DNA from: Acidobacteriota bacterium
GTDB taxonomy: Bacteria; Acidobacteriota; Terriglobia; Terriglobales; SCQP01
Assembly: GCA_021818955.1 (NCBI GenBank)
Contig: JAKASR010000002.1
Coordinates: forward strand, 107,659-171,658
Direction of reading: 5' to 3'
DNA length: 64,000 nt
Part shown: positions 1 through 54,017 of the stretch, piece after piece
Layout: every line of letters begins with the position of its first letter
How positions within the stretch are numbered: position 1 is the first letter of the stretch
Made by a program: the position numbers and the translations under genes
Notes under the pieces: model-generated
What the model was told of the DNA's origin: nothing
Database searches by the model: none
Seen by the model: the letters and a program-made list of their open reading frames with translations, nothing else

Positions 1-325
1 GGCGGGCATGATAGAGCGGCTCCAGGTGGTTGAGCAGAGGATCCCTTGCCATCTGCGCCAGGACATCCCCGCGCAAGTCGAGATGCACTTGAAAATGGTC
101 GCGCAGAAAATCGGAAAGCACCCGCAAACATGGCGAGCTTTGCTTTTCCAAAAACGCCAGCAGCGCGCAAATACCGCGGGATTGCAACACCGAGCCGGCG
201 GCGACAAAGAAGCCTTTATCACTATCCTGATAGGCCTGACAAAAAAGGCGACCATATTTCGCCGCAAACAAATCAAGATTGAAGCCAAGCTGGGCCGTGG
301 CCAAAGGGGTTGGGATCGCAGCCAT
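1..325 (-). CDS. cmr5: Type III CRISPR-Cas small subunit (Cas11, Cmr5-like); 5' part only, gene runs off the left edge
   Basis: Absent from the ORF track because no stop lies in the window. Reverse-strand ATG at 323-325 is preceded by GAGGAG (about 335-340). The frame is open to position 1 (108 codons: MAAIPTPLATAQLGFNLDLFAAKYGRLF...SVLQSRGICALLAFLEKQ...). GICALLAFLEKQ resembles the Cmr5 'GL..alaFl..K' segment. Its position after the Cmr4-like gene fits III-C gene order. Confidence 0.5.
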   Translation of the reverse strand, partial: MAAIPTPLATAQLGFNLDLFAAKYGRLFCQAYQDSDKGFFVAAGSVLQSRGICALLAFLEKQSSPCLRVLSDFLRDHFQVHLDLRGDVLAQMARDPLLNHLEPLYHAR

Positions 326-356
326 GTTGAAATTCTCCTCTCGCTGCCATCGCCGG

Positions 357-1346
357 CTATGATTGAATCCACACGCGGCCTAAGCCTCGGGTATTCATGC
401 CGCCAAGGCCAAGATATTGCATTAAGCTAATTCCGCGATTCATCACGTCGCGCAAAGCCGTCATCTCCATCGGCGCTCTTGACCCATTGCTGCCAATGGT
501 AGCGTTGAAAATAGCCGGATTATTATAGACGGCATCGAACCAAAGCAGACTCGAGCGCGGGATAGCTTCATAAGTAAATAATGCGCCGTCTTCGGCCGCC
601 CCGGTTTCCGGCTTAATCGAGACCAGGGTGCGGACTTCCAGATTGTCATCCACCAGGCGCTTAAACATAGCATTGCCGACCAGCACGCATTGCTGAACTT
701 TGTTGAGCAACACAGAAGGAATCGGCTGTAGTTCAGACACCCGATCATCCGCATGCCGCGAGGGAAACCGCCATTGCGCCAGATCGGAATCCTGCAAGCC
801 ATCTAATTTATTTAAATATAGCCAGCCGAAATCCAGTTGCGGTTGAGTGAAGTTGCCTTTTAAAACAATGAAATTTCCATCTTCGATTGCGGGCAAGCCC
901 GACGACACGCCAGCCATTTCTGCAGGCAAGCCCGACGATATGCCAGCCGCCTCAAGCTGCTGTGGACAAGTAATCCAGACCGGCCCGCGAGTCGTCGCGA
1001 TGGGAAAGAGCAACAGGTGGGCGGTAAAGAGTTGTACTAATCCCTGGCGGCTCCCGGATGAGCCTTTGGCCCAGCCAAATGCATGGCAGACGGGGCAATC
1101 GCCACAATGAGACTGGCCTTCCGCCCCCCCCTTCCCGCTGCACTGCGGACGATCCATGCTCAGTGCCGCATAAGCCCGGGTGACACCGCTGAGGCTGGTG
1201 CCGGGGATCACCGGCAGATTCGTGCCAGACTCGCGCAAAACAGGCAAATCAATGCGGCCAATTTTTTGCTGGCCGGCGCCGACATGAAGCGGGTCGAGAG
1301 CGAACATCCAATAGCGGACTTGTTCGAAAATTCTTGGATCAGGCAT
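357..1346 (-). CDS. cmr4: Type III RAMP backbone subunit (Cas7 family, Cmr4-like)
   Basis: IGRIDLPVLRESGTNLPVIPGTSLSGVTRAY matches the Cmr4/Csm3 'iD.P..Re..t..P.ipGSSlKG.lR' pattern. The candidate catalytic Asp33 lies at nt 1248-1250. There is a Cys-rich insert (HCGDCPVCHAFG) and a C-terminal G-rich loop (GLGGMNTRGLG). Confidence 0.75.
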   Translation of the reverse strand: MPDPRIFEQVRYWMFALDPLHVGAGQQKIGRIDLPVLRESGTNLPVIPGTSLSGVTRAYAALSMDRPQCSGKGGAEGQSHCGDCPVCHAFGWAKGSSGSRQGLVQLFTAHLLLFPIATTRGPVWITCPQQLEAAGISSGLPAEMAGVSSGLPAIEDGNFIVLKGNFTQPQLDFGWLYLNKLDGLQDSDLAQWRFPSRHADDRVSELQPIPSVLLNKVQQCVLVGNAMFKRLVDDNLEVRTLVSIKPETGAAEDGALFTYEAIPRSSLLWFDAVYNNPAIFNATIGSNGSRAPMEMTALRDVMNRGISLMQYLGLGGMNTRGLGRVWIQS

Positions 1347-1347
1347 T

Positions 1348-4300
1348 TCAAGCTCCTGAGCGAGCGACGGGTTGGCCTGCCTCGTCGACGCGGGCTAAAG
1401 TAGTCTTGGAAGCAGAGGCACGATCCTCTTCCGGCGGATTCTGGTGAAATAAGGCATAGGCTTCAAAAATCGAGCCATCACAACAGCGATCCAATAAAAA
1501 AGCCCGCTGCGCAGCTGTTAGGGCAGCGGCATGATATTCGATTTGCTGACGCGCTAGCTCACGCCATTCAATATGCCCTGGTGTCTCGGCGGCAGGCGCG
1601 GGATAAGGCAGCCCGATGCGCCAAGTACGAATTTTCTCGGCCAGTAAATCAATCAGGGAATGGCGCACCGATTCGGACGGAATACCGGCCGCCAGCAAAT
1701 CGCGTATCTCGATTAAGTGGGACATTAGGAGTTCAAGCCGTATCGGCCGAACCTGCTGATCATTCCAGGCATAGCTGGGTCGATGCCCATGCTCCGCCAC
1801 CTGCAAGGCAAAGCGCCGGGTGGAGCTATCGAGATATTCATAGTCGTAGGCGCAATCGGCGGCGATGATGCGCATACCCGGGCGAAGATCGCGCAAATGC
1901 AGTACACATAATCTCCCCAGAGAGTCCGGCATGGCATGGTGCCGATCATCCTCATTTAAAGATTCCTCGGAGACAATGAAATACGGATGATAGCTATCAT
2001 CACGACCATCACCGAGGTAGGCAGGCACCCGCCAATGTAGATCGCCCGCCAAATGCAAATCGGTATATCCATTGCCCGCATTGGTCGGCTGTTGACAAAG
2101 CTTATACGATCCCGACATATTATGACGGCTTTGAAAGGCTAGAAGCATGCGGCGGGCAGCGTCGAGCGCAATGTACATGGGAAAGCGAGGCTGAAAAAAC
2201 AAGTTGCCGATCGAAAAGGAGAGGCGGCCCGACACCTTGCCGAAACGGCGTTGAAATTCGGCGGTAATACGTCCGCTTAACTCCACTGCGCGGGCGGCGG
2301 GCACCAAGGCAATAAAGATTTCCGGCGTGGCCAGAATTTCACGATAAGGATAATAGTCGCGCGCAGTCGGATTGCCACTTAATGGAATCGATTCAAGACG
2401 CAGCGGCTCGCCCGAATCCGCATCACATATCCGGGTAAGTGACTTACCAATGAAAGCATCCGTCGACGCTTGATTAATCAATTCAATCCGATTATTTTCA
2501 TCGTCCCAGACGAACTCGACCGGCTGATCGGCAATGAAAGCCTTATAGACCGCATTGGGGGCCAAGACTTTTTCCAGCGCGAGATGGCTTTCAAGTATGA
2601 ACCCCCAACGTTGCATGCGCGGCAAATATTTCCTCAGCAACGGCGTCGAATCGGATCCTGATTGCGTATTTGGTGAGGTCAGGGAACTAAAATATTCCTG
2701 AGTGGTACGCCAGACATCGAGCACGGTGGAAGGGGTGGGAGATTTGGCTGTAATCAGATTGATTAACTGAGATAAACGCACGGGCGTGTCGGCGATTTGC
2801 CCCGCCAATTCGCGTAATTCTGAAACCTTCGCCGCAGAAGGCGCAAATTCACCATGATGGTTTTCCAGAGGCCATGCCTGGCGAGGATCTTTCGGGGTTT
2901 GATTGAAGCGGCCCCCAGGCCAAAATTGGCGATAGAAGCAGATCACGGCACTTGCGAGTTTAAGTTCTTCCTGATCCGCGGTGTCGGCAAAAGCTTTCAA
3001 GCAGACTGCGACTTCCTGGCGAAGCCGCTCGGCATCATAATTTGACCAATCCTGACCCCGTGCGGTTTCCAAATACTGCTTTGACTTCAGTTCATCTGCT
3101 TTAAATAGTTGGGTGTTTCCTAAATCAACCGCCTGGCGCGAAAGCCCGCGCGGTTCGGTAACATACAAAGTACGTATCCGACTGCCATCGAGCCATGGAT
3201 CTAATCCGATGCGGGCCACCAGCAATGCGACATCCCGGCCACGGGCAATTTCATTAATAAAAAGCGTGGCGGCGTCGGCTTGACGAAGCTGCGAAGCTCC
3301 CCGACTGCGCCGGCGGGCGCATATTTCACAACGTTTATCCGATCGCGCTCGCGGATACGTGCGCAACCGGCAGATCGGACAAATCTCCTGATCCAAGATA
3401 GACGGCAAATAGTGTTGAAACGGTTCCAGTCGGCCATCGGCGACGATACGGCCATCGGCATGAATGGGAAATCCGAATTCCTGGCGAAGTTTATTCAACA
3501 CGAAAACGATATCGGTAATATCCCGGGTACCATGTCCGAGCGAGACAAAGCGGGGCCACAATTCGCCCTTCGAGATTATCAACGAGCCATCCAATATTTC
3601 TCGACCGATTATTTCCAACCAGTGCTGATAAGCTTCCCCGATGGAATTGGAATCCATCTTTTCCGGAATTAAAAACAAGATGCAATTATCATCTTCGTAG
3701 ATTGCATTGCCTAGCGCATATATGAATTCGATTTTTTCTCTCGCCGCATGGCGCACCTGGCGAAGCAGGTCGCGGCGGGTAGTGAGGTCGGCAATTTTTT
3801 GGCCGCGCTGAATAAAGCGCACCGCATCCCAGCCCAGTCCCCAGATAGTAAATCGCGCGGATTGAAACACATTGTGTTCCTCCAATTTTTCGGCTGTTAT
3901 GCCAGAATGATATAGTAAATACCACGCTTGAAATACTTTAGTAATGGTGGTTACAGCATAGACATGCTCGAATAGCGAGGTATCATTGCCGGGTCGCGTG
4001 GTATCGCTACAGGCAGGCTTATATTGATCTTCGAGCAACTTCAATAGCCGCCGGCGCGGGGCAGGGTCTTTATCGGGTGGACGTAGCCAACAGGTCTTGA
4101 TCAAATCCTCGCTCGAAAGAGCCGCATATAACTGCTCGCGGTTTGTTTCAAGATTATCATCGCTGATCTGACTTTCATAACCGAATACATTGGAGCGATA
4201 AAAGGAACGCAGAATTTCATTTTCTTGCGGAGGTTTGCTATGATCGCATTGCTCGCCGGCAGGCAAGGGATTATTACGATCAATAGCCGAATCGAGAGCA

Positions 4301-4656
4301 TCGGCCGCCTTTAATGCTTGCTCATAAACGATATGGGGGCTGGGTGCGACATGAGAGGACATTACTCTTTTCGGCGAAAATCTCTCACTGCAACCTATGG
4401 CGAAGGTGATTTCCTGGCTCATTTGCTCCAGCAGAATAGAATATTTATTTTTAAATTCCGGCGTTTCATGTTGATCGAGGAAATCATGATCGTGCGGGTC
4501 TTTATTATAAGCGTCAGGATTAGAATCGGCATACCAAGTGCGGCGATATTTCAGGAAGGCCATGCTTAATTTACCCATATCATGGAATAACGAGCAAAGC
4601 TCACTTCTCAATAACCAATCACGATTATCGCTATTTCGTAATTCCGTTACGCCCAT
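1348..4656 (-). CDS. cas10: Cas10 large subunit, HD motif present, cyclase GGDD motif absent
   Basis: 1102 aa. HD motif LCSLFHDMGK (H25-D26, nt 4579-4584). Palm-1-like WGLGWDAVRFIQ. Zn finger CPICR...CEIC. Palm-2-like block LSFSIGNLFFQPRFPMYIALDAARRML. No GGDD or GGDE anywhere; the expected position reads ILATPEIFIALVP. Confidence 0.8.
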   Translation of the reverse strand: MGVTELRNSDNRDWLLRSELCSLFHDMGKLSMAFLKYRRTWYADSNPDAYNKDPHDHDFLDQHETPEFKNKYSILLEQMSQEITFAIGCSERFSPKRVMSSHVAPSPHIVYEQALKAADALDSAIDRNNPLPAGEQCDHSKPPQENEILRSFYRSNVFGYESQISDDNLETNREQLYAALSSEDLIKTCWLRPPDKDPAPRRRLLKLLEDQYKPACSDTTRPGNDTSLFEHVYAVTTITKVFQAWYLLYHSGITAEKLEEHNVFQSARFTIWGLGWDAVRFIQRGQKIADLTTRRDLLRQVRHAAREKIEFIYALGNAIYEDDNCILFLIPEKMDSNSIGEAYQHWLEIIGREILDGSLIISKGELWPRFVSLGHGTRDITDIVFVLNKLRQEFGFPIHADGRIVADGRLEPFQHYLPSILDQEICPICRLRTYPRARSDKRCEICARRRSRGASQLRQADAATLFINEIARGRDVALLVARIGLDPWLDGSRIRTLYVTEPRGLSRQAVDLGNTQLFKADELKSKQYLETARGQDWSNYDAERLRQEVAVCLKAFADTADQEELKLASAVICFYRQFWPGGRFNQTPKDPRQAWPLENHHGEFAPSAAKVSELRELAGQIADTPVRLSQLINLITAKSPTPSTVLDVWRTTQEYFSSLTSPNTQSGSDSTPLLRKYLPRMQRWGFILESHLALEKVLAPNAVYKAFIADQPVEFVWDDENNRIELINQASTDAFIGKSLTRICDADSGEPLRLESIPLSGNPTARDYYPYREILATPEIFIALVPAARAVELSGRITAEFQRRFGKVSGRLSFSIGNLFFQPRFPMYIALDAARRMLLAFQSRHNMSGSYKLCQQPTNAGNGYTDLHLAGDLHWRVPAYLGDGRDDSYHPYFIVSEESLNEDDRHHAMPDSLGRLCVLHLRDLRPGMRIIAADCAYDYEYLDSSTRRFALQVAEHGHRPSYAWNDQQVRPIRLELLMSHLIEIRDLLAAGIPSESVRHSLIDLLAEKIRTWRIGLPYPAPAAETPGHIEWRELARQQIEYHAAALTAAQRAFLLDRCCDGSIFEAYALFHQNPPEEDRASASKTTLARVDEAGQPVARSGA

Positions 4657-5423
4657 GGCTGCGCGCCTTCAATCCGCGCCCTAAGCTCCGATAATTTATC
4701 GAGATTTTGCAAATTATAAGAGACATGGCGATTGTACAGGCGAGAATTCAAGATCTGATTTCGAGCCAAGCCGAAACCTTTCAGGGTTTTCGCGCCAATT
4801 CCATGAATTGTGAATAGAAGCTGGAGCCAATCGCAAACGAGTGGAAATAGCAATCGAGCTTGTTCTACGCCTTGAGCCTCTCCACGCCCCAAATAGAGCA
4901 CAGAAAATGTTGCCGATTGTCCCGCGCGAACTACATGCGGCGAAACGGGAACCGTACCTTTGCGTGCGCGGCGATTGTGCGGGTTAAAGACTACATGGGA
5001 GTTAGTTTCGTTAAAAAAAGAAGGAAAGAAATGCAACCGGCCTTCCGATTTACTCTCTTTATCCGGTCCAAACGCTTCAATGACAGGTTCGCCGGGATTA
5101 ATCAGATTGGCGACATAACGTAGTCGGCCTTTCCAAGTGGAAGGACGCACCCAAGGACGGCGGTAAACCCATTCCCGGGCAATTGTCTGCGGGCTTGCCG
5201 CCACGACTTCGTCGCCTTTGGATAAATAGGGGGAAATCAAGGTGAATTGAAACTGCAAAAACAATGTTCCGGCAGGAAAATAACGGAAATGATTGGCGAT
5301 TGGTGAAGGTATAAAACTATCGCAGGAGGCGGTCTGCAGCGCATCTTCGCATGTCCGGTTAACCGCGTGCCATGCGGCGCCTTGTTGCAATTGCCGCAAA
5401 GAAGGATAAACTTCTAAACTCAA
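4647..5423 (-). CDS. cmr6: Type III RAMP protein (Cas7 family, Cmr6-like)
   Basis: RPSTWKGRLRY (RAMP 'S.KG.lR' motif). FGPDKESKSEGRLHFFPSFF (Cmr6-like 'FG....G.l.F.d'). G-rich loop IHGIGAKTLKGFGLAR. The stop overlaps the cas10 start by 10 nt. Confidence 0.65.
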   Translation of the reverse strand: MSLEVYPSLRQLQQGAAWHAVNRTCEDALQTASCDSFIPSPIANHFRYFPAGTLFLQFQFTLISPYLSKGDEVVAASPQTIAREWVYRRPWVRPSTWKGRLRYVANLINPGEPVIEAFGPDKESKSEGRLHFFPSFFNETNSHVVFNPHNRRARKGTVPVSPHVVRAGQSATFSVLYLGRGEAQGVEQARLLFPLVCDWLQLLFTIHGIGAKTLKGFGLARNQILNSRLYNRHVSYNLQNLDKLSELRARIEGAQPWA

Positions 5424-6463
5424 GCGCCGCCTCCTGCAGCCAGCGCAAGCGCCGGCTGAATTCGTATAAACGGTTGATTGTCAGGTAAATATTGCTTACG
5501 AATGCCAGCGGCATTTAACCAATCAGGAATTTGACTTAAAAAGCCAGGGTCGAGCACATAACCCCAGGTGCGGCCCGCAGGACGGCCATTTATCGCTGCT
5601 GGAAGTGTAAAAGAAAAAAGACGCTTGCTTTGAATATCTCGGCTGCCGCGGACATGCGCGCGCAATGGATCAAAGCCATCGTTAAATTCTTTAATCGAGA
5701 ACATAGAAGGCCAAGGCATGGCATCCAATCCTAAAAGGTGGTTAAACGAGCCAATTTCCGGATGCGACTCATACAAGGTCACACCTGGCAGAAAGAAGAA
5801 ATAATCTATTCGAGGTAAATCAGGCGTTTCATTGGGTTGTTTTTTTTGCCGGTGTTGCATTTCAACAAGAAAGCGGGTTTTCCATACGTTCACTGGCTCA
5901 TCGTCGGGCATGGCCCCTTGCATTCCGAGTAGTTGAATTAATCCGTAATCACGATGGCATTCATTACCGGCAGCATTTCCTGGCACTGGTTTTAAAGTGG
6001 TCTTACCGCCTAAGGAAGCATAAGTACAAATAATATGAAGGATCGTTGCGAGTAAATGCTGTTGTGCGGAGCGTAATGGCGGCTGCGAGTGTAGAAAACT
6101 AAATTCTAACCAGAATATTTGACCTGCATGAAGTGGTTCAATGCGAATTTCAGAGCGATCCGGTTGTCCATTGAGATCTTTCCAGGCCCGGATACTGAAA
6201 CGAGCCGCAGCGGGAAGTGGGGCATTTCTTTGTGATTGACCACTACCTACGCCCCCGAAGAGTTGGCAGATGAAGCATGGGTCTATATTCGAACAACGCA
6301 AACCAGAATCGGTCGGATCGCAGGCGCGGACGTCGAAAGCACGCACATAGGCCTCAGCCCACCAGCGAATGCTTCCCAGCAAGCTAGTCATTTGAAGCCG
6401 GGAGTTTTGGCGGTGCTCATCGCCCGTCCAAATTTCGCTCAAAGCTTGTAATTTAAAGATCAT
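5420..6463 (-). CDS. cmr1: Type III RAMP protein (Cas7 family, Cmr1-like)
   Basis: LLGSIRWWAEAYVRA (Cmr1 'KGalRfWfRal'-like). CFICQLFGG. G-rich loop ASLGGKTTLK. There are 4-nt overlaps with both the upstream and downstream genes. Confidence 0.6.
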   Translation of the reverse strand: MIFKLQALSEIWTGDEHRQNSRLQMTSLLGSIRWWAEAYVRAFDVRACDPTDSGLRCSNIDPCFICQLFGGVGSGQSQRNAPLPAAARFSIRAWKDLNGQPDRSEIRIEPLHAGQIFWLEFSFLHSQPPLRSAQQHLLATILHIICTYASLGGKTTLKPVPGNAAGNECHRDYGLIQLLGMQGAMPDDEPVNVWKTRFLVEMQHRQKKQPNETPDLPRIDYFFFLPGVTLYESHPEIGSFNHLLGLDAMPWPSMFSIKEFNDGFDPLRAHVRGSRDIQSKRLFSFTLPAAINGRPAGRTWGYVLDPGFLSQIPDWLNAAGIRKQYLPDNQPFIRIQPALALAAGGGA

Positions 6464-7245
6464 GCATGCGCCCCGCGTTTTTTCGCGAGAAAAGTTTCAG
6501 CATCCTCGCTGAACCGATCATCATGCCAGAGCCTATCGAATTCCTCCAAGAAATGTCGCAGTAAAGGATTATGATGGTGGCCACGTTTGAGGATTAGCAC
6601 CGGGTCCCTTAATCCAGAACGCCCGCGCAACAGATAGCCGATGAAGCCTTCCCGATCGTCCACATAGTGCGCCCAGTAGCGGGCGTATTCGCGATAGAAA
6701 CGAACCTTCAATTCCAATTTCCCCCGCATCCCCAGATATGATTCGGCCGTGCTGTTGATTCTGCGGATTTCGGCGCTGACTTCTTCGTTGTTAGGCTCAC
6801 GCCCAAGCTCATGCTTTTTGCTTTCACGAACGCAATCTGCTTCAGGCGCCAATAGCAGAAATCTCAACCGGCACCCCGGATTGAATATTCCTTGTTCGAC
6901 GGTATTCCGAAATTCGGACAAAAATGACCCGCCGCTAATGCCGATGTATGCATATTCCTCGACAACATTTCTCCATACCTGAACGTTGTCAACAATTTTG
7001 AAATGCGGCTTGACGTCGGTCACATATCGTATCACTCGGAAAGGACGAAGAATTATTCCCAATATTGCCGCTAACAAAATCGATCCAAGAATCACAAGTT
7101 TAAGAACGAGGGGATGATTCTGTCCTATAAAAACCGTGACCAGCAGGTCTATAAAGACAATGGCATCAACAAAATAGCTAAAGCGTTCGGGGAGTGCTTT
7201 AGGGGTATCCATTAAATTCTCCCGAAACATGGACAATAAAGGCAA
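6460..7245 (-). CDS. Uncharacterised two-TM membrane protein with a C-terminal soluble domain; first gene of the type III operon
   Basis: Hydrophobic helices FSYFVDAIVFIDLLVTVFIG and LVLKLVILGSILLAAILGIIL are followed by about 180 aa of soluble sequence. The stop TGA overlaps the cmr1 ATG (ATGA at 6460-6463). The ORF-track start is a TTG at 7245. An ATG at 7212 (MDTPKALPERF) with GGGAGA 6 nt upstream is a more likely start. Confidence 0.6.
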   Translation of the reverse strand: MPLLSMFRENLMDTPKALPERFSYFVDAIVFIDLLVTVFIGQNHPLVLKLVILGSILLAAILGIILRPFRVIRYVTDVKPHFKIVDNVQVWRNVVEEYAYIGISGGSFLSEFRNTVEQGIFNPGCRLRFLLLAPEADCVRESKKHELGREPNNEEVSAEIRRINSTAESYLGMRGKLELKVRFYREYARYWAHYVDDREGFIGYLLRGRSGLRDPVLILKRGHHHNPLLRHFLEEFDRLWHDDRFSEDAETFLAKKRGAHA

Positions 7246-7278
7246 CGCCTATCGTACATGTCAGTCGAATGTGGTGGG

Positions 7279-7306
7279 ATTATACTCCAAGAGATTATTA
7301 ATGCAA
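7279..7306 (-). promoter_or_regulatory. Candidate sigma70-type promoter for the type III operon
   Basis: On the minus strand: TTGCAT (7301-7306), 16-nt spacer, TATAAT (7279-7284). It lies about 35-65 nt upstream of the candidate starts. It is bracketed by the inverted 8-mers AGTCGAAT (7263-7270) and ATTCGACT (7330-7337). Confidence 0.4.
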
Positions 7307-7372
7307 ATCCCTTGAGAGCTCCAATCGAAATTCGACTCTTTAACAACCACAATTTAGGTATGCGGGCCGACT

Positions 7373-7401
7373 TTGACTGCCAACTATTGTGCGAATGCAA
7401 T
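7373..7401 (+). promoter_or_regulatory. Candidate sigma70-type promoter for the divergent 7616 gene
   Basis: TTGACT (7373-7378), 17-nt spacer, TGCAAT (7396-7401). This would give a leader of about 210 nt. Confidence 0.3.
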
Positions 7402-7615
7402 CAATCAGCGCCCGCAGCGCGGGAATGTCGTCTTCGGTGGCGAGCCGCAGGCTAAATTCAGGCGGGGTTCCCATGTCCTACCGCTGCTTTCATGTTTTAC
7501 CCGTGGCAGTAGTTTAAGATGGCTCGGCCGCTTATTTCTGCATCCCGGCCGGCGGCGGGATCATCTCTGGAATGTCGCGCCGGCCGCGCGCCCATCTTAA
7601 GACAGGAGTTCCTCC

Positions 7616-8032
7616 GTGTCCCAGTACGATGAAAAGCCTTTTCCGCTGGATTTTCATGACCTCAAGTTGTTGAGCCATCTGGAAGAAATCCTTTTTGCCT
7701 GGCGGGAAGACGGCTTTCCCGGGATGCGGGATAAAGTTTTGGAATATAAGTGCGAACTCAACGAGTTCAACCGAAAAACACTGGCAAATTATAGTCCTAA
7801 GCCGTCCCCGGCCAAACCGTTAAGAATAATAGGGTGCGTGCAAGGCATGCTGCTGGATGAAGACTTCGATCACCCGCCCGATATGAAATTTTTAGATGCC
7901 TTCCTCCCCTGGCGGCTGAATGAAAAAGACAAAGCCTGGTTGAAAGCGATCGGCATCGAGCCGCCCGACTGTTTAGGGCAAGCGGAAAACGGCGGGAAGC
8001 AGCCTCCCGATAACGGAAGCGCGGAAGGATAG
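7616..8032 (+). CDS. Hypothetical protein (138 aa)
   Basis: GTG start preceded by AGGAG. Intermediate GC. Lies 31 nt upstream of the DUF2235 gene. No family recognised. The internal MLLDEDFDHPPDMKFLDAF loosely recalls the 'DFD.PL...F' tail of some small antitoxin-like proteins. Confidence 0.5.
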   Translation: MSQYDEKPFPLDFHDLKLLSHLEEILFAWREDGFPGMRDKVLEYKCELNEFNRKTLANYSPKPSPAKPLRIIGCVQGMLLDEDFDHPPDMKFLDAFLPWRLNEKDKAWLKAIGIEPPDCLGQAENGGKQPPDNGSAEG

Positions 8033-8063
8033 CCTGAATCACTGAACCCGGCCGAGGCGAGGG

Positions 8064-9197
8064 ATGAGCAAAAACCTGGTGGTTTGCTGCGACGGCACCG
8101 GCGACCAGTTCGACAACAGCGACACCCATTCCAATGTCATCAAGCTCTGCCGGGCGCTGGTGCAGCGCGACGCGGAGCAGATGGTTTATTACCACCCCGG
8201 GGTAGGGACCATGGGGGCGCCGCTGGCGCGAAACTGGCTGGCGAAGCAATGGACGCGGTTCCAGGGGCTGGCGTTTGGCGCGGGCCTGCTCGACAACGCG
8301 GGCGACGCCTACCGCTATCTGATGGAAAACTATGCCGCCGGCGACCGGATATTTCTATTCGGCTTCAGCCGCGGCGCCTATACGGCGCGGGTGCTGGCGG
8401 CGGTACTGCACATGTACGGCCTGCTGCATCGCGGCAATCAGGGGCAAATTCGCTATCTCTTCCATAGGTTCGCCATGGCCAGCCGCCAGGCGGGGCGGCT
8501 GCAGCCGGAATTCGCGATCGCGGAGGATTTCAAGCAAACGTTTTCACGCGACGTCGCCGTGCACTTTTGCGGGCTGTGGGATACGGTCAGCTCGATCGGC
8601 TGGATTTACGATCCGGTGAAATTCCCCTACACCGCCTGCAACCCGATCGTGCGCTGCGGCCGGCACGCGGTCTCGATTGACGAGCGGCGCTGCTTTTTCC
8701 GGGAGAACCTTTGGGGCGAGCTGCCGGGCCAGGACCTGCTGCAGGCCTGGTTTGCCGGGGTGCATTCGGACGTGGGCGGAAGCTATCCGGAAGCGCAAAG
8801 CGGGCTATCGAAACTGGCGCTGCAATGGATGGCGGAAGAAGCGGCCGGCCGCGGCCTGCTGCTTGACGCCCGGCGCATGGCCTGCATTTTAGGCCGCGGG
8901 ACGGGCTGCGAAAACTACGCGCCGCCCGATTGCCAGGCGCCACTGCATCATTCCCTGCAAGGGTGGTGGTGGCTGCTGGAATGGCTGCCGCACCGCTACT
9001 ACGACCGGCGGGCGCGGCGGCAGCGCTGGCGCATTCCGCGGGGCGCGCGGCGGGTCATTCCGGAAGGCGCCGCCATCCATGCCAGCGCGCTGGCGCGGGC
9101 CGCCGACCCGGCTTGCGATTATGCGCCGCGGCTGCCGCAAGATTTCAGGGTGGCGCGAACACGAAACCTGCCGTCCGGCCCGGCCGTTAAGGCTTGA
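8064..9197 (+). CDS. DUF2235-family alpha/beta hydrolase (Tle1-like phospholipase catalytic domain)
   Basis: Family hallmarks in order: VVCCDGTGDQF, YYHPGVGT, nucleophile elbow GFSRGAYTARVLA, WFAGVHSDVGGSY. No signal peptide is seen. Confidence 0.85.
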   Translation: MSKNLVVCCDGTGDQFDNSDTHSNVIKLCRALVQRDAEQMVYYHPGVGTMGAPLARNWLAKQWTRFQGLAFGAGLLDNAGDAYRYLMENYAAGDRIFLFGFSRGAYTARVLAAVLHMYGLLHRGNQGQIRYLFHRFAMASRQAGRLQPEFAIAEDFKQTFSRDVAVHFCGLWDTVSSIGWIYDPVKFPYTACNPIVRCGRHAVSIDERRCFFRENLWGELPGQDLLQAWFAGVHSDVGGSYPEAQSGLSKLALQWMAEEAAGRGLLLDARRMACILGRGTGCENYAPPDCQAPLHHSLQGWWWLLEWLPHRYYDRRARRQRWRIPRGARRVIPEGAAIHASALARAADPACDYAPRLPQDFRVARTRNLPSGPAVKA

Positions 9198-15452: not shown

Positions 15453-15665
15453 GCGAAATGGATCGTTAACGCCACCGCTGCCGAAAAATCCCGGTCCTTG
15501 GTTTTTTCTACCCGCGACACGCTTCTCCCCCGTTCTGGACCCGGCACTCTAGTTCGCGACGGCTGGAAGAGGAGGGGTTTAGGTTTTGAGCAACCGACGT
15601 TAACCAGCTATATTAACCAGCCCCGGGGAAAGGGTCAAGAGCGGCTCGGACGGGCCACAAAAAAA

Positions 15666-15692
15666 GGATGCGCAGCCAAGCGCATCCTTTTT
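15666..15692. terminator. Bidirectional intrinsic terminator hairpin
   Basis: GGATGCGC-AGCCAA-GCGCATCC, an 8-bp perfect stem. An A-run lies on one side and TTTTT on the other. Confidence 0.6.
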
Positions 15693-15734
15693 CGGAAGCA
15701 GAACAGAAGACCCACGCAAAGCGTGGGCCCGATC

Positions 15735-15785
15735 TTACTTCTTTTTCTTTGCGGGCTTCTTGGCTGCCTTTTTCTTCGCTGCCAT
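15735..15785 (-). CDS. Candidate 16-codon Lys-rich micro-ORF (MAAKKKAAKKPAKKKK)
   Basis: ATG preceded by AAGGAGGAGAA, with a TAA stop. Two hairpins follow it. An in-frame stop 6 codons upstream of the ATG excludes a longer form. Confidence 0.3.
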   Translation of the reverse strand: MAAKKKAAKKPAKKKK

Positions 15786-15854
15786 TTCTCCTCCTTGTCG
15801 GGTTTAAACCCAATGGCCTCCCCGATATTTAGGGCTATCGGGTTAGCCATACAA

Positions 15855-15962: not shown

Positions 15963-16480
15963 TCAGAACTTAAATTCCGCCTTGACGCGCTCGGATTTTT
16001 CGTGCACGGAGCGTTCCAATTCCTGTTTATAAGCCAGCAGGCGCTCGCGCAAGCGCGCGTCCTGGAGGGCAAGGATAGAGATGGCGAGAATGGCGGCATT
16101 GCGGGCGCCCGCATCGCCGACGGCCATGGTGGCGACGGGAACGCCGGCGGGCATCATGGCGGTGGACAGCAGGGCGTCGAAGCCGGAAAGCGGCGAGGTG
16201 GCCATCGGCACGCCGACTACCGGCAGGATGGTTTCAGCGGCGATGACGCCGGCCAGCGCGGCGGCGGCGCCGGCGCCGACGATGAGCACGCGCAAACCGC
16301 GGGAGGCGGCGTTGCGGGCGTATTCGGCGGTGCGCTGCGGCGAGCGATGGGCCGAGGTGATTTCGATTTCGCAGGGCACCTCGAACTGCTTCAGCAGCTT
16401 GGCGGCCTGCGACATCACCGGCAGATCGGTATCGCTGCCCATTAAAATGCCGACGAGCGGCGCGGAAACGGAATCTGGCA
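15963..16480 (-). CDS. purE: N5-carboxyaminoimidazole ribonucleotide mutase
   Basis: VGILMGSDTDLPVM...SAHRSP...GAGAAAALAGV...PVVGVP. The chosen start is MPDSVS, preceded by GGAGGA. The ORF track extends it to 16535. Confidence 0.9.
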
Positions 16481-16574
16481 TGAGTCCTCCTGGCAGAAAT
16501 TTTATGATACGCGAGCGCCATCGCCGGAGCCGCAATTTTCCGCCTAAGGCGGCTGAGGGGTTGAGCCGCGGCGC

Positions 16575-50872: not shown

Positions 50873-51280
50873 TCATATTGCTTTTTTTGGCGTTCCTTTT
50901 CCTTTGGTGTCCAGTATTTTTCGCATTAGTGGCAGTTCTAATTCTACTTTTTTATGTTGCACAGTTGGTTTTATACGTCCACGAGGACCGCGTTCCAATT
51001 GCAATAAGCCGTATCCTTCCATCGTTTTTAAGGTGCGGGAAAGGTTGGATTTCGCCCTGCCTGTCAAGCGAGCCAGCTCATCCAAGGATTTTGGCGAGTG
51101 CTCGGCAATCACTTTCAACAAGTCGCGATTGCCGGCAGAAAGCACTTTCGCAAACGATTCGATTGATGCGAACCAAATCTTCGGCTCGTTTTTGGCTACT
51201 CGCCTCTGCCCGCGCGCAATAGCCAGGGTTCGCGCCTTCATTTCCGCATAATTGGCGATGCCGACTCGCAAAGTTTTCAT
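50873..51280 (-). CDS. HTH transcriptional regulator, candidate antitoxin partner of the upstream gene
   Basis: MKTLRVGIANYAEMKARTLAIARGQ...IWFASIESFAKVLSAGNRDLLKVI...SLDELARLTGRAKSNLSRTLKTMEGYGLL (winged-helix). 4-nt overlap with 51277..51618. Confidence 0.6.
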   Translation of the reverse strand: MKTLRVGIANYAEMKARTLAIARGQRRVAKNEPKIWFASIESFAKVLSAGNRDLLKVIAEHSPKSLDELARLTGRAKSNLSRTLKTMEGYGLLQLERGPRGRIKPTVQHKKVELELPLMRKILDTKGKGTPKKAI

Positions 51281-51618
51281 TGAAATACGCCCCGTTCGCG
51301 CAGAACTGAATCCACCAGATTCCAGAAATCCTCGATCAGCTTTGCCGCATTTTGAAATTCATACCGTTTGATCGTTTGCAAGCGATGGAAATGATCTTGA
51401 GCATCGCCTTTTTGGCCTTTCACGCGATGGGCGTTATCGAAACCGGCCAATCGCTGGCCATCCGGTCCATGCAGGGTAATTGAATAATCCAGGCCATGAG
51501 GTTTCTGAGACGAAATTTGAACGGGCTTGAATTTAAACTGCACCCAATGATTTCCCTCTGTATCAACTACGAGAATCGTCCCATCCAATTCGAGCAATGA
51601 AAGAGGGTGTGCGTACAT
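51277..51618 (-). CDS. TumE/DUF6516-like protein (candidate toxin)
   Basis: 113 aa. The GFDNAHRVKGQKGDAQDHFHRLQ...YEF...LIEDFWNLV pattern resembles, from my recollection, TumE-family toxins paired with an HTH partner. Confidence 0.45.
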   Translation of the reverse strand: MYAHPLSLLELDGTILVVDTEGNHWVQFKFKPVQISSQKPHGLDYSITLHGPDGQRLAGFDNAHRVKGQKGDAQDHFHRLQTIKRYEFQNAAKLIEDFWNLVDSVLRERGVFQ

Positions 51619-51805
51619 TTTGTTTCCTCATGCTAAATTCACCTCCTCGGCCGCCAAATTGGCTGTTCCCAGCACTTTGACCGCTCCTCACGTTCCCCTT
51701 TGGGGATCAGGGCCAGGCAATTAAAGGTTATCATACAATGATAACCTTATTCAGTGATTTGACTGTTTTGTATTATGGCAAGATAATCCGCCACTGGAAC
51801 GGCCA

Positions 51806-52040
51806 ATGATCTACAAACGCGGCAAGAAGGGCATCTACCGGTATAATTATTTTGGCAGAGCCGGATGATTTACGAAACGACGCGGCAGGATAACCCATGT
51901 GTGGCCGGAGCCGGCGGCAGATTCTCGAAATGGGGCAAGACGCCTAAATCCCTGCCCATCATCCGCATGCTGCCGAGAGAATATCACCGTGACAGGGTGA
52001 TCACTCCAGAGGAAGAACGGCGCTACTTGACCGCCGTCGC
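51806..52040 (+). pseudogene. Tyrosine-integrase remnant (frameshifted and truncated)
   Basis: MIYKRGKKGIYRYNYFGRAG-stop resembles the integrase N-terminal 'M.YKRG..WWyrf' arm-binding start. In the next frame, IIRMLPREYHRDRVITPEEERRYLTA resembles the 'E.n.R.R.Lt.eEe.rLL.a' linker. No catalytic domain follows. Confidence 0.5.
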
Positions 52041-52071
52041 CCCGCCCGCGCAACCGGCCCGCGCCCCGCGG
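52041..52071 (+). repeat. Right copy of the perfect 31-bp direct repeat
   Basis: Identical to 50757-50787. It begins exactly where the integrase-like similarity ends. Confidence 0.9.
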
Positions 52072-52276
52072 ACGGCACACACCATGCAGCCGGCGCAGCC
52101 TGAGGATTAAATTCCGCGACGCTGGCAGGGCACGTTCCAATCGCGCCACCTGCAAAATCAAATACTGCCGTACCGGCAGGCTGGTCGCCAAACTGGCTGC
52201 CAACTGATATTGGCACCCGGCTGATCCACCATTTCCAGCAGGTGGGTAAGCATCGCGCTCAAGCGATGGTGACCGA

Positions 52277-52675
52277 TCATGCGCGGGTCCGCATCGAGCT
52301 GTCGAGCCGCTCCAAACCCTGCTCCTGCCCGTGCACCATAGCCACGACGATGGCGTGATTGAGGTCCACCACCGGGTTATCGGACATACATTGCAACAGC
52401 GTTTCAGTCAATCGCAGTCGATGATCGGCAGCTTTCAGCAATAGAGCCCCGCCATCGGAACTGCCATGCCGATGGTCAAATTGCACAATAATCGGTTTGT
52501 AGAAAATATCGGGAAACAAAGACACTGTGTCGTGGTATTGTGACCCATATGAAAGCCTTTTTTGGTTTAAACCTATTTCCAAACAGGTTTTACCATCAAG
52601 AAGATTTCCCTGTCTCCAAAATTCGTGAATTTTCCGGGTTAAGGCGGAGAAAATACTATGATGCCACCTCAGCAT
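52277..52675 (-). pseudogene. IS1380-family-like transposase N-terminal fragment
   Basis: IIVQFDHRHGSSDGGALLLKAADHRLRLTETLLQCMSD resembles the IS1380 N-terminus 'f.gg.lTSdaGllLLre.d.rlgLt..la.cl.D'. No DDE domain follows. Confidence 0.4.
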
Positions 52676-53521
52676 AAGATGGAAATACCATTATTAAAAG
52701 TATTAGCAGATTTCGGGGAACCTGTTGAGGCCAACAAGGTTTATCCTGAAATGAGAAAGTATTTCCCGAATATTACGGATGAGGATTTAAATGAACCTCT
52801 TCAAAGTGGTGGAAATAAATGGATAAACCGTATTCAATGGGTAAGGCAAACTCTTATTAGACGAGAAGAAATATCCAGCCCAAAATGGGGGGTTTGGCAA
52901 ATAACTGAAAAGGGTAAAAGACGTCTTCGTGTAAATGCTACACCTATTCCTGAGCCCAGCTCTCCGTCGATTTCTAATGCAAATCCACAATCAAACCCTC
53001 AGCCAAATCTACCTGAAACAAATGGTGATTTAAATTTGGAGGATATTTCGGAAGCATATCTAGAATCTTTTAAACAATTGCTATTGAATAAGCTCCATGA
53101 TTTAACCCCAGAAAGATTTGAACATTTTGCTGCTGCACTTTTAAAAGGATATGGGTTTCAAAATATAACTGTAACTGGTAGGCCAAGTGATGGTGGTATA
53201 GATGGATATGGACATTTGAAAGTGGGATTGGCCTCTATTAAGGCAGCGTTTCAATGTAAAAGATGGCAAAATCAAGTAGGCTCCCAAGAAATACAAAAAT
53301 TCCGTGGCGCAATCCAAGGACAATATGAGCAAGGTTATTTTTTTACCACATCTACATTCTCAAAAGCTGCTCAAGATGAATCCATTAAAGCCGGTGCAGC
53401 ATCAATAATATTATTTGATGGAAGACAGATTGTAAGTATAATGATTGAAAAAGGAATCGGAATCAGAAGACGACCAGTTGAAACATATGAAGATCAATTA
53501 GATCAAATATTTGAAAATTGA
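52658..53521 (+). CDS. mrr: Mrr-type (type IV) restriction endonuclease
   Basis: Mrr_N-like winged helix (IPLLKVLADFGEP...WINRIQWVRQTL). Catalytic core FEHFAAALLKGYGF...DGGIDGYG...FQCKRW. This is the most AT-rich gene in the window. Confidence 0.85.
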   Translation: MMPPQHKMEIPLLKVLADFGEPVEANKVYPEMRKYFPNITDEDLNEPLQSGGNKWINRIQWVRQTLIRREEISSPKWGVWQITEKGKRRLRVNATPIPEPSSPSISNANPQSNPQPNLPETNGDLNLEDISEAYLESFKQLLLNKLHDLTPERFEHFAAALLKGYGFQNITVTGRPSDGGIDGYGHLKVGLASIKAAFQCKRWQNQVGSQEIQKFRGAIQGQYEQGYFFTTSTFSKAAQDESIKAGAASIILFDGRQIVSIMIEKGIGIRRRPVETYEDQLDQIFEN

Positions 53522-53563
53522 TTTACTTCCAACGTAATGAAAGATTCATATCAATCAGAATCT

Positions 53564-53794
53564 TCATCCATTGGGCAGCGTGATTTCGCGGTCTTCAGCT
53601 CTCCAAGCGGCATAGCGTAACGCCTGCAATACGTCTTCGCGGTCAAGGTAGGGATAATCCGCAAGAATTTCCTCAATACTGCGTCCGGCGCCAATCTGGC
53701 CGACGATCATGCCGACAGTTACCCGCATGCCGCAAATACAGGCTTTGCCGCCCATCGTTACCGGTGTTTGCATAATGCGATCCAATCCTTCCAT
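53564..53794 (-). CDS. DUF433-domain protein (antitoxin-like), no partner gene
   Basis: GGKACICGMRVTVGMIVGQIGAGRSIEEILADYPYLDREDVLQALRYAA matches the DUF433 pattern. Confidence 0.8.
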   Translation of the reverse strand: MEGLDRIMQTPVTMGGKACICGMRVTVGMIVGQIGAGRSIEEILADYPYLDREDVLQALRYAAWRAEDREITLPNG

Positions 53795-53940
53795 AATCTA
53801 CCCCAATGCGCATAGCATATCGCGCGGCAGGACTATTCGCATGGTTCCCACTCTATTTTCTTTTCATCAAACTGCCACCATCACGCACCAGCCGGACGAG
53901 AAGGTATAATAAAATTCTTGACGGATTGGCCGCCGCTTGC

Positions 53941-54017
53941 GCGCCCTTAGCTCAGCTGGATAGAGCGTCTGGCTACGAACCAGAAGGTCGGGAGTTCGAA
54001 TCTCTCAGGGCGCGCCA
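53941..54017 (+). tRNA. tRNA-Arg (anticodon ACG)
   Basis: GCGCCCT/AGGGCGC acceptor, GCTC-AGCTGGATA-GAGC D arm, TCTGG-CTACGAA-CCAGA anticodon arm, GGGAG-TTCGAAT-CTCTC T arm, encoded CCA. Close to the E. coli tRNA-Arg(ACG) layout. Confidence 0.9.

Follow-up and report, generated by a model that had tools for sequence, protein, structure and literature searches.

Among the classical type III subtypes of CRISPR–Cas systems, III-C is, to our knowledge, the one studied least. Loss of the cyclase site is a requirement for the subtype (PMC11229360, PMC12669027), which has no known effectors and about half of whose systems retain the HD nuclease domain (PMC11229360). Its loci are described as usually without arrays (PMC12669027) and without cas1 and cas2 (PMC5541045). 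As for reverse transcriptase (RT) modules, III-C figures as a possible exception in one survey (PMC5513706), and III-B/C is listed in another (PMC5541045). Here, we analyse a 64,000-nucleotide (nt) stretch of DNA from an uncultured Terriglobales (Acidobacteriota) bacterium (contig JAKASR010000002.1; hereafter the window, numbered from its first letter), whose positions 1–8050 are very probably the promoter-proximal part of a complete subtype III-C locus that was acquired horizontally and would work through the mechanism set out below.

A described point of reference is the III-C locus on plasmid pANACY.02 of Anabaena cylindrica PCC 7122. It shares with our locus the gene order cmr1, cmr6, csx11, cmr4, cmr5, cmr3, as well as a large subunit of the Csx11 family that has lost its cyclase motif, with the two Cas10c proteins roughly 26% identical. 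The Anabaena locus has no accessory membrane gene, cas6, adaptation genes or adjacent array, whereas the locus studied here has all of these. In the following, we describe its genes and their motifs, its completeness, a spacer derived from the host itself and the linkage of the accessory gene to other III-C operons. The locus is a fairly divergent addition to the known III-C systems with RT-based adaptation, and a complete locus rather than an orphan module.

Results

A III-C effector operon at the left end of the window

The open reading frame (ORF) listing of the window places five complete ORFs and the start of a sixth on the minus strand at its left end. In the direction of transcription, these are an accessory gene (6460–7245 as listed), cmr1 (5420–6463), cmr6 (4647–5423), cas10c, also called csx11 (1348–4656), and cmr4 (357–1346), followed by cmr5, which starts at 325 and exits the window across the left edge with the first 108 of its 137 codons inside (1–325). 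For the accessory gene, homologue alignments and the public gene call make the ATG at 7212 (6460–7212, 250 amino acids (aa)) the likely start, in preference to the TTG at 7245. A sequence-only reading of this DNA had proposed a tightly packed, minus-strand III-C-like Cmr/Cas10 module with the order cmr1, cmr6, cas10, cmr4, cmr5, cmr3, and both the packing and the order are borne out, the latter in the window together with the contig described below. The accessory gene and cmr1 overlap by 4 nt, as do cmr1 and cmr6, and cmr6 overlaps cas10c by 10 nt; cas10c and cmr4 are 1 nt apart, and the 31-nt gap between cmr4 and cmr5 holds the ribosome-binding site GAGAGGAG. The 4-nt overlap between the accessory gene and cmr1 suggests translational coupling. 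Upstream, a consensus match (TTTGCA-17-TATAAT, 7279–7307, minus strand) is a sigma-70-like promoter candidate for the operon; the consensus scan of this region returned four sites against 0.9 expected from shuffles.

Families were assigned by searching the locus proteins against three profile libraries (Pfam, NCBIfam and PADLOC), which placed every gene of the module, Cmr1 and Cmr5 weakly. Cmr4 (329 aa), the Cas7-type backbone subunit and predicted target-RNA nuclease, matches TIGR02580 with 114.2 bits (cutoff 87) and the PADLOC Cmr4 profile with E = 3.7e-42. Its D33 aligns with D26, the catalytic residue of Pyrococcus furiosus Cmr4 (PDB 4wnz). Cmr6 (258 aa), a Cas7-type RAMP, is recognized by PADLOC (E = 6.4e-32) and by Pfam RAMPs (E = 3.3e-8). 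Cmr1 (347 aa), also a RAMP, obtains E = 1.1e-6 in PADLOC, E = 4.6e-9 with Pfam RAMPs and 22.9 bits with TIGR01894, under its cutoff; in all related operons compared, cmr1 keeps the first RAMP position. The full-length Cmr5, the small subunit (137 aa), matches the PADLOC III-C Cmr5 profile weakly (E = 0.0026), and the position of cmr5 between cmr4 and cmr3 is conserved in three related loci (L003, L004 and L006). Within cmr4, we also noted an in-frame 33-nt tandem duplication (888–948; 28-nt copies 89% identical), which encodes a repeated SSGLPA segment in a Cmr4 insertion region.

The large subunit, Cas10c (1,102 aa), comprises an HD domain, a Zn finger and a degenerate cyclase palm. The PADLOC Cas10c profile spans its residues 10–1013 with E = 1.6e-96, TIGR02682 (Csx11) gives 247.8 bits against a cutoff of 248.95, and Pfam Cas10 palm-2 gives E = 0.0013. 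Its named homologues carry the Csx11 annotation, the closest being 36% identical; a scan of genome contigs with Cas10c alone gave no confirmed relative. In a ten-sequence Csx11 alignment, the HD residues are conserved (H25-D26 in LFHDMGKL, H55 in DPHD, H102, and D119/D122/D126 followed by RNNPL), as is a four-cysteine Zn finger (CxxC...CxxC, residues 426–446). In a profile search of solved structures, residues ~775–865 align with palm 2 of P. furiosus Cmr2, whose GGDD faces ATPE at residues 777–780, where the family consensus is non-acidic. The cyclase site has therefore been lost, as III-C requires. The Pfam, NCBIfam and PADLOC scans detected neither CARF nor SAVED domains in the locus proteins.

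A separate observation concerns residues 273–331 of Cas10c, where a block of the form GWD..RF..K..DL..RR...GN.IY.DD....FLxP is invariant across Csx11 proteins. It resembles the YxDD/GGDD active-site hairpin of palm domains, though the canonical palm-2 GGDD is gone. That residues 270–331 form an active palm hairpin found no support in a Pfam scan of residues 255–420 or in an hhalign comparison with the palm-2 region, and the resemblance is one of motif only.

Cas6, adaptation genes and an array beyond the window edge

There is no repeat-spacer array within the 64-kb window, and an RNA scan of it (Rfam, ARAGORN) returned two tRNAs only. The sequence-only reading had stressed that array, cas6 and adaptation genes were missing, and had predicted cmr3 just left of the edge. 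An exact-protein look-up led to two metagenome contigs in the European Nucleotide Archive (ENA), one of which (L001; 13,097 nt) is 100% identical to window positions 1–7541 without a gap. Leftward of the window, this contig continues with the rest of Cmr5 (complete at L001 7217–7630), Cmr3, Cas6, an RT-Cas1 fusion, Cas2, a leader and an array. The absence is literally true of the 64 kb, but it is an artefact of the window cut, as the parts lie just beyond the edge; a leftward extension, which the same reading had suggested, recovers all of them on L001.

Cmr3 (286 aa; PADLOC E = 1.7e-54) lies where it had been predicted, followed by Cas6 (353 aa; PADLOC E = 2e-53). The RT-Cas1 fusion (L001 9584–11680; 698 aa) holds Pfam RVT_1 and Cas_Cas1 in one protein and scores E = 3.9e-81 with the PADLOC RT profile, E = 5e-86 with PADLOC Cas1 and 247 bits with TIGR00287. 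Directly after it comes Cas2 (91 aa), which a 226-nt leader adjoins. In the array, the 37-nt repeat CTTCAAAGGCACCGCGCCGCATTTAGGCGACTGAAAC occurs at least 13 times, with spacers of 35–42 nt; its last copy is degenerate, and the repeat folds as a short hairpin followed by the 8-nt tail ACUGAAAC, features consistent with transcription that starts at the leader next to cas2 and with the usual 5′ tag of type III systems. Read along the minus strand, the locus runs from the candidate promoter through the accessory gene, cmr1, cmr6, cas10c, cmr4 and cmr5 and, beyond the edge, cmr3, cas6, RT-cas1, cas2, leader and array. A search of JGI metagenome contigs with the repeat gave no match, and no spacer of six related arrays matched its own (short) contig.

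Two fusions in related loci deserve mention. One locus (L018, 8564–11203) has a Cas6-RT-Cas1 triple fusion (879 aa) adjoining its III-C operon, and another (L004, 14490–15632) encodes a Cmr3-Cas2 fusion in one 380-aa ORF, with no cas1 in the locus.

A spacer derived from the host genome

Of the 11 spacers, one is of host origin. Spacer 6 (41 nt; L001 12585–12625) is identical at 41 of 41 positions to the minus strand of the window at 15712–15752, with no match in 100 shuffles. It follows that the L001 array and the window belong to one genome, and the match suggests that adaptation has taken place in this host. The source site is flanked by the ATP synthase genes and by a 190-aa ORF (15963–16535) that we take, from its sequence, to be purE-like; its distance to the cas operon is 8 kb.

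The site falls in a tiny minus-strand element within 15650–15830, which has a ribosome-binding site AAGGAGGAG, a Lys-rich ORF of 16 codons (MAAKKKAAKKPAKKKK, 15735–15785), a 10-bp GC-rich terminator hairpin (15708–15730) and then a second strong hairpin. As a whole, the element has a fold z of −3.5, and it has no Rfam match. Spacer 6 spans the last codons of the small ORF and the first terminator and, taken in the orientation of the cas genes, runs in the sense direction of the small transcript. The CRISPR RNA (crRNA) would therefore not pair with the presumptive mRNA, and no self-targeting of that mRNA is expected. Such an origin fits the RNA-derived spacer uptake described for RT-Cas1 systems (PMC5541045, PMC6821258), and DNA-derived uptake may also account for it.

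An accessory membrane protein linked to III-C

The first gene of the operon had been labelled simply a membrane gene. It does encode a transmembrane (TM) protein, but the label is incomplete, as the gene is a conserved accessory gene linked to III-C. The protein matches Pfam DUF5919 (33.5 bits, gathering threshold 23.5; residues 120–244 of the 261-aa reading) and has no PADLOC or NCBIfam match. Hydrophobic segments lie at residues ~10–30 and 32–56, and N-terminal TM segments occur in 57 of 57 aligned family members. The motif counts used this 57-sequence alignment, and related loci were searched with an 11-sequence one. The AlphaFold2 model from the larger alignment reaches a predicted local distance difference test (pLDDT) score of 92, against only 48 for a single-sequence model, and has two N-terminal helices (residues 6–29 and 36–63) followed by an alpha/beta domain. 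From a basic stretch after the second helix, we infer that the soluble domain is cytoplasmic.

Foldseek relates this domain to the phospholipase D (PLD) superfamily. Its matches include Zucchini/MitoPLD, Nuc, phosphatidylserine synthase (PssA), poxvirus F13 and the non-catalytic FAM83 and TrmBL2, with E values of 1e-5 to 2e-4 and target-normalised TM-scores of up to 0.55 for 4ggk, 1byr, 8yr6 and 9fhs. The probability is 1.0, at a sequence identity to PLD-superfamily structures of only 9–15%. The catalytic HKD motif is not conserved: among the 57 members, 27 have His and 24 have Tyr at position 182, there is no Lys two residues after it, and the family has no conserved GSxN. Nuclease or lipase activity is therefore unlikely.

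The family is small. An exhaustive phmmer search of 1.84 billion representatives returned only 85 relatives, nearly all of 235–290 aa, and tblastn against plasmids gave no match. Ten further loci (counting L004/L005 and L007/L008 as separate loci) had enough flanking sequence for the context to be judged, and in every one of them the homologue is III-C-linked. The full III-C operon is visible in eight of the accessory-bearing loci, and one (L010) shows only the start of cmr1. In most cases, the gene lies directly upstream of cmr1 (L003, L004/5, L006, L010, L011, L012 and L016), and it overlaps cmr1 by 4 nt in L006 and L016 as it does in the window; in the Kuenenia loci (L007/8) and in L018, it lies between cmr3 and the RT/Cas1 genes. 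Because L004 has the accessory gene and no RT-Cas1, the gene seems to be linked to the effector module. III-C loci without the gene also exist, namely L009 and Anabaena pANACY.02.

In L009, the place of the DUF5919 gene is taken (2301–2645) by a gene whose 114-aa product has a comparable TM segment, as well as an FxEqFEEFW-like motif at its C terminus, and may be a truncated derivative. Upstream in the related locus with the Cmr3-Cas2 fusion, we found PRTRC/ThiF/E2-type genes, as beside the Anabaena plasmid locus (L004 3411–6840; L015 1344–3752), which hints that these modules ride on mobile elements.

A literature search found no description of the accessory family, and no paper mentioning DUF5919 was found in the searchable full texts. 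Linkage of membrane proteins to type III loci has been described before (bioRxiv 10.1101/270033). Shah et al. list a ‘III-C specific’ cluster, C3a152 (Cylst_6373), without giving a sequence (PMC6546367); it may or may not correspond to the accessory family.

Composition and genomic neighbourhood

The GC fraction is 0.509 over positions 1–7541 and 0.636 over 8064–64000. The tetranucleotide distance to the rest of the window is 0.37–0.49 in the first two 4-kb blocks, compared to 0.14–0.22 in typical blocks, and is thus two to three times as large as in any other 4-kb block. The block had been called AT-rich, which holds relative to the host (~64% GC) and not in absolute terms, as the block has ~51% GC. 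The compositional shift that had been placed at 7.6–8.0 kb is likewise real, but the step falls at ~8.03–8.06 kb, just before a Tle1/DUF2235-like gene. The low-GC block therefore also takes in a plus-strand 138-aa ORF (7616–8032; GC 0.511), which is probably part of the acquired block. This ORF has no family match in the profile search, and the exact protein is present in a public collection. The gene that follows (8064–9197, plus strand) has host-like GC and encodes a protein like Tle1/DUF2235-type phospholipase effectors (Pfam E = 3.2e-78).

The GC and tetranucleotide shifts make horizontal acquisition of the III-C block plausible, as the sequence-only reading had proposed. AtpD is 83–92% identical to proteins of Terriglobales metagenome-assembled genomes (MAGs). 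Relatives of the locus in other Acidobacteriota MAGs have RT-Cas1 proteins of ~65% identity and Cas10c proteins of only ~33%. Farther along the window, a second low-GC block (51000–54000; 0.43–0.50 against ~0.64) ends beside a tRNA-Arg gene (53941–54017) and is possibly another acquired island.

Discussion

Alternative explanations

Judged by the 64 kb alone, the operon could pass for an orphan III-C effector module that has neither array nor adaptation genes of its own and works in trans with arrays elsewhere in the genome, the usual textbook picture of III-C loci: array, cas6 and cas1/2 all fall outside the window, most III-C loci are without arrays (PMC12669027), and the Anabaena cylindrica plasmid locus is of that very kind. 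This is contradicted by L001, which over 7,541 nt is identical to the window and has cas6, RT-cas1, cas2 and an array directly downstream of cmr3, and by the match of spacer 6 of that array to the window; related loci carry arrays too. We consider an orphan module extremely unlikely. Hardly more credible is a decaying or domesticated locus that has no role in immunity and might, for instance, use host-derived spacers for regulation. One host-derived spacer among 11 and the lack of a match for the three spacers searched in a viral collection would suit such a locus, but all ten genes are intact and tightly coupled with their catalytic residues kept, and, provided that reading of the array starts at the leader, the host spacer runs in the sense of the presumptive mRNA, so that its crRNA would not pair with it. 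Moreover, that few of their spacers find a match is a known trait of RT-associated arrays (PMC5513706).

A different objection questions the class of the locus. Cmr-type subunits are common to III-B and III-C, so that a III-B system might have been misfiled as III-C, its Cas10 being an active cyclase that signals to an unrecognized effector, possibly the accessory membrane protein with its PLD-like domain, as an effector gated by nucleotides; membrane effectors that respond to products of Cas10, such as Cam1, Csx23 and CorA, are known (PMC11229360). The invariant GWD...RR...IYxDD...P block (273–331), with its likeness to a palm-domain active-site hairpin, and the Csx11 score slightly below the NCBIfam cutoff would speak for such a system. 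We reject it as very improbable, given that the Cas10c profile matches with E = 1.6e-96 and generic Cas10 models with 1.7e-4 at best, that the canonical GGDD position reads ATPE, that neither the Pfam scan of residues 255–420 nor hhalign of the two palm regions gave a palm-like signal, and that no gene encodes a CARF or SAVED domain.

The interpretation that we prefer, a complete and horizontally acquired III-C locus, has points against it as well. The left part comes from another assembly (ENA ERZ27237313) and not from the window's own contig, which makes the join an inference, even though the spacer match and 100% identity over 7.5 kb tie the two together. Cmr1 and Cmr5 were assigned from weak profile matches plus synteny, and Cas10c stays ~1 bit short of the curated Csx11 cutoff. 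Three spacers compared with a viral contig collection gave no exact match and hence no target. Two distant members of the accessory family (L013, from Actinoplanes, and L019) are not CRISPR-linked. Expression, activity and the role of the accessory protein are predictions from sequence.

Proposed mechanism

The activities that we propose for this locus draw, in their core, on family knowledge and conserved residues. Cas6 would cut the 37-nt repeats at the base of the hairpin, leaving the 8-nt 5′ tag ACUGAAAC on every crRNA. The Cmr1–6/Cas10c complex would bind the crRNA and recognize complementary transcripts, which Cmr4 would cut through its conserved, putatively catalytic Asp33. Target binding would also activate the intact HD nuclease of Cas10c, leading to degradation of nearby single-stranded DNA. 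No cyclic-oligoadenylate signal is expected, since the GGDD cyclase motif has been lost and the locus encodes neither a CARF nor a SAVED effector. RT-Cas1 and Cas2 would supply the array with further spacers, some of them at least taken from RNA.

The accessory protein would tether the complex at the inner membrane or otherwise be its physical partner there. Because the PLD active site is not conserved, it is probably no enzyme, and a non-enzymatic membrane tether or partner is its most likely role, a guess constrained by topology, fold and linkage. A bolder conjecture, tentative and on balance doubtful, is that this TM/pseudo-PLD protein is a dedicated, undescribed component of a III-C lineage with RT-based adaptation and the first known ancillary partner of a cyclase-dead type III subtype. 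No nucleotide messenger would be needed: the protein might, for example, dock the Cas10c complex or RT-Cas1 at the membrane, or direct contact with the activated complex might turn it on. In a more speculative extension, the invariant IYxDD block of Csx11 would be a relocated nucleotide-processing site whose product is bound by the PLD-like domain.

Together with its relatives, the locus forms a lineage of complete III-C systems that have an RT-Cas1 module, their own arrays, an intact HD nuclease and a conserved membrane-anchored accessory protein. This lineage is a concrete candidate in which to ask how cells organize a type III system that is free of signalling. The host-derived spacer, from an uncultured soil bacterium, is a naturally occurring case consistent with RNA-templated spacer uptake. 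For annotation, the lesson is that an apparent lack of array and adaptation genes was caused by a window edge. Specialists may find most of interest the membrane/pseudo-PLD gene in a cyclase-dead subtype, the pairing of RT-Cas1 with III-C and the spacer apparently derived from a host transcript.

Comparison with known systems

The III-C locus of Candidatus Kuenenia (L007, GCA_900696675.1) shares with ours the effector operon, an RT-based adaptation module, cas6 and an array, and it has a homologue of the accessory TM/DUF5919 gene (24% identity, E = 8e-18). The two differ in that RT and Cas1 are separate genes in Kuenenia and fused in our locus, and in that the accessory gene lies between cmr3 and RT there and ahead of cmr1 here; the Cas10c proteins are 29% identical. 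The RT-Cas1 modules of Marinomonas mediterranea (III-B) and Vibrio vulnificus (III-D) likewise have a group-II-intron-like RT fused to Cas1 and followed by Cas2. These serve effectors other than III-C, whereas our module is attached to III-C.

The nearest counterparts of the accessory protein are of two kinds. Zucchini/MitoPLD, the DUF1669 domain of FAM83 and the C-terminal domain of TrmB share its fold (Foldseek E ~1e-5, probability 1.0). Zucchini/MitoPLD also has an N-terminal membrane anchor, as the accessory protein does. The enzymes of the PLD superfamily keep the HKD motif, whereas the accessory family does not. Cam1, Csx23, CorA and the uncharacterized membrane families of Shmakov et al. 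share with it N-terminal TM helices and a cytoplasmic soluble domain within type III operons (PMC11229360; bioRxiv 10.1101/270033). Whereas the known membrane ancillary proteins sense nucleotides made by Cas10 through CARF-like or dedicated domains, the accessory protein brings a PLD-like fold to a subtype that lacks the cyclase site.

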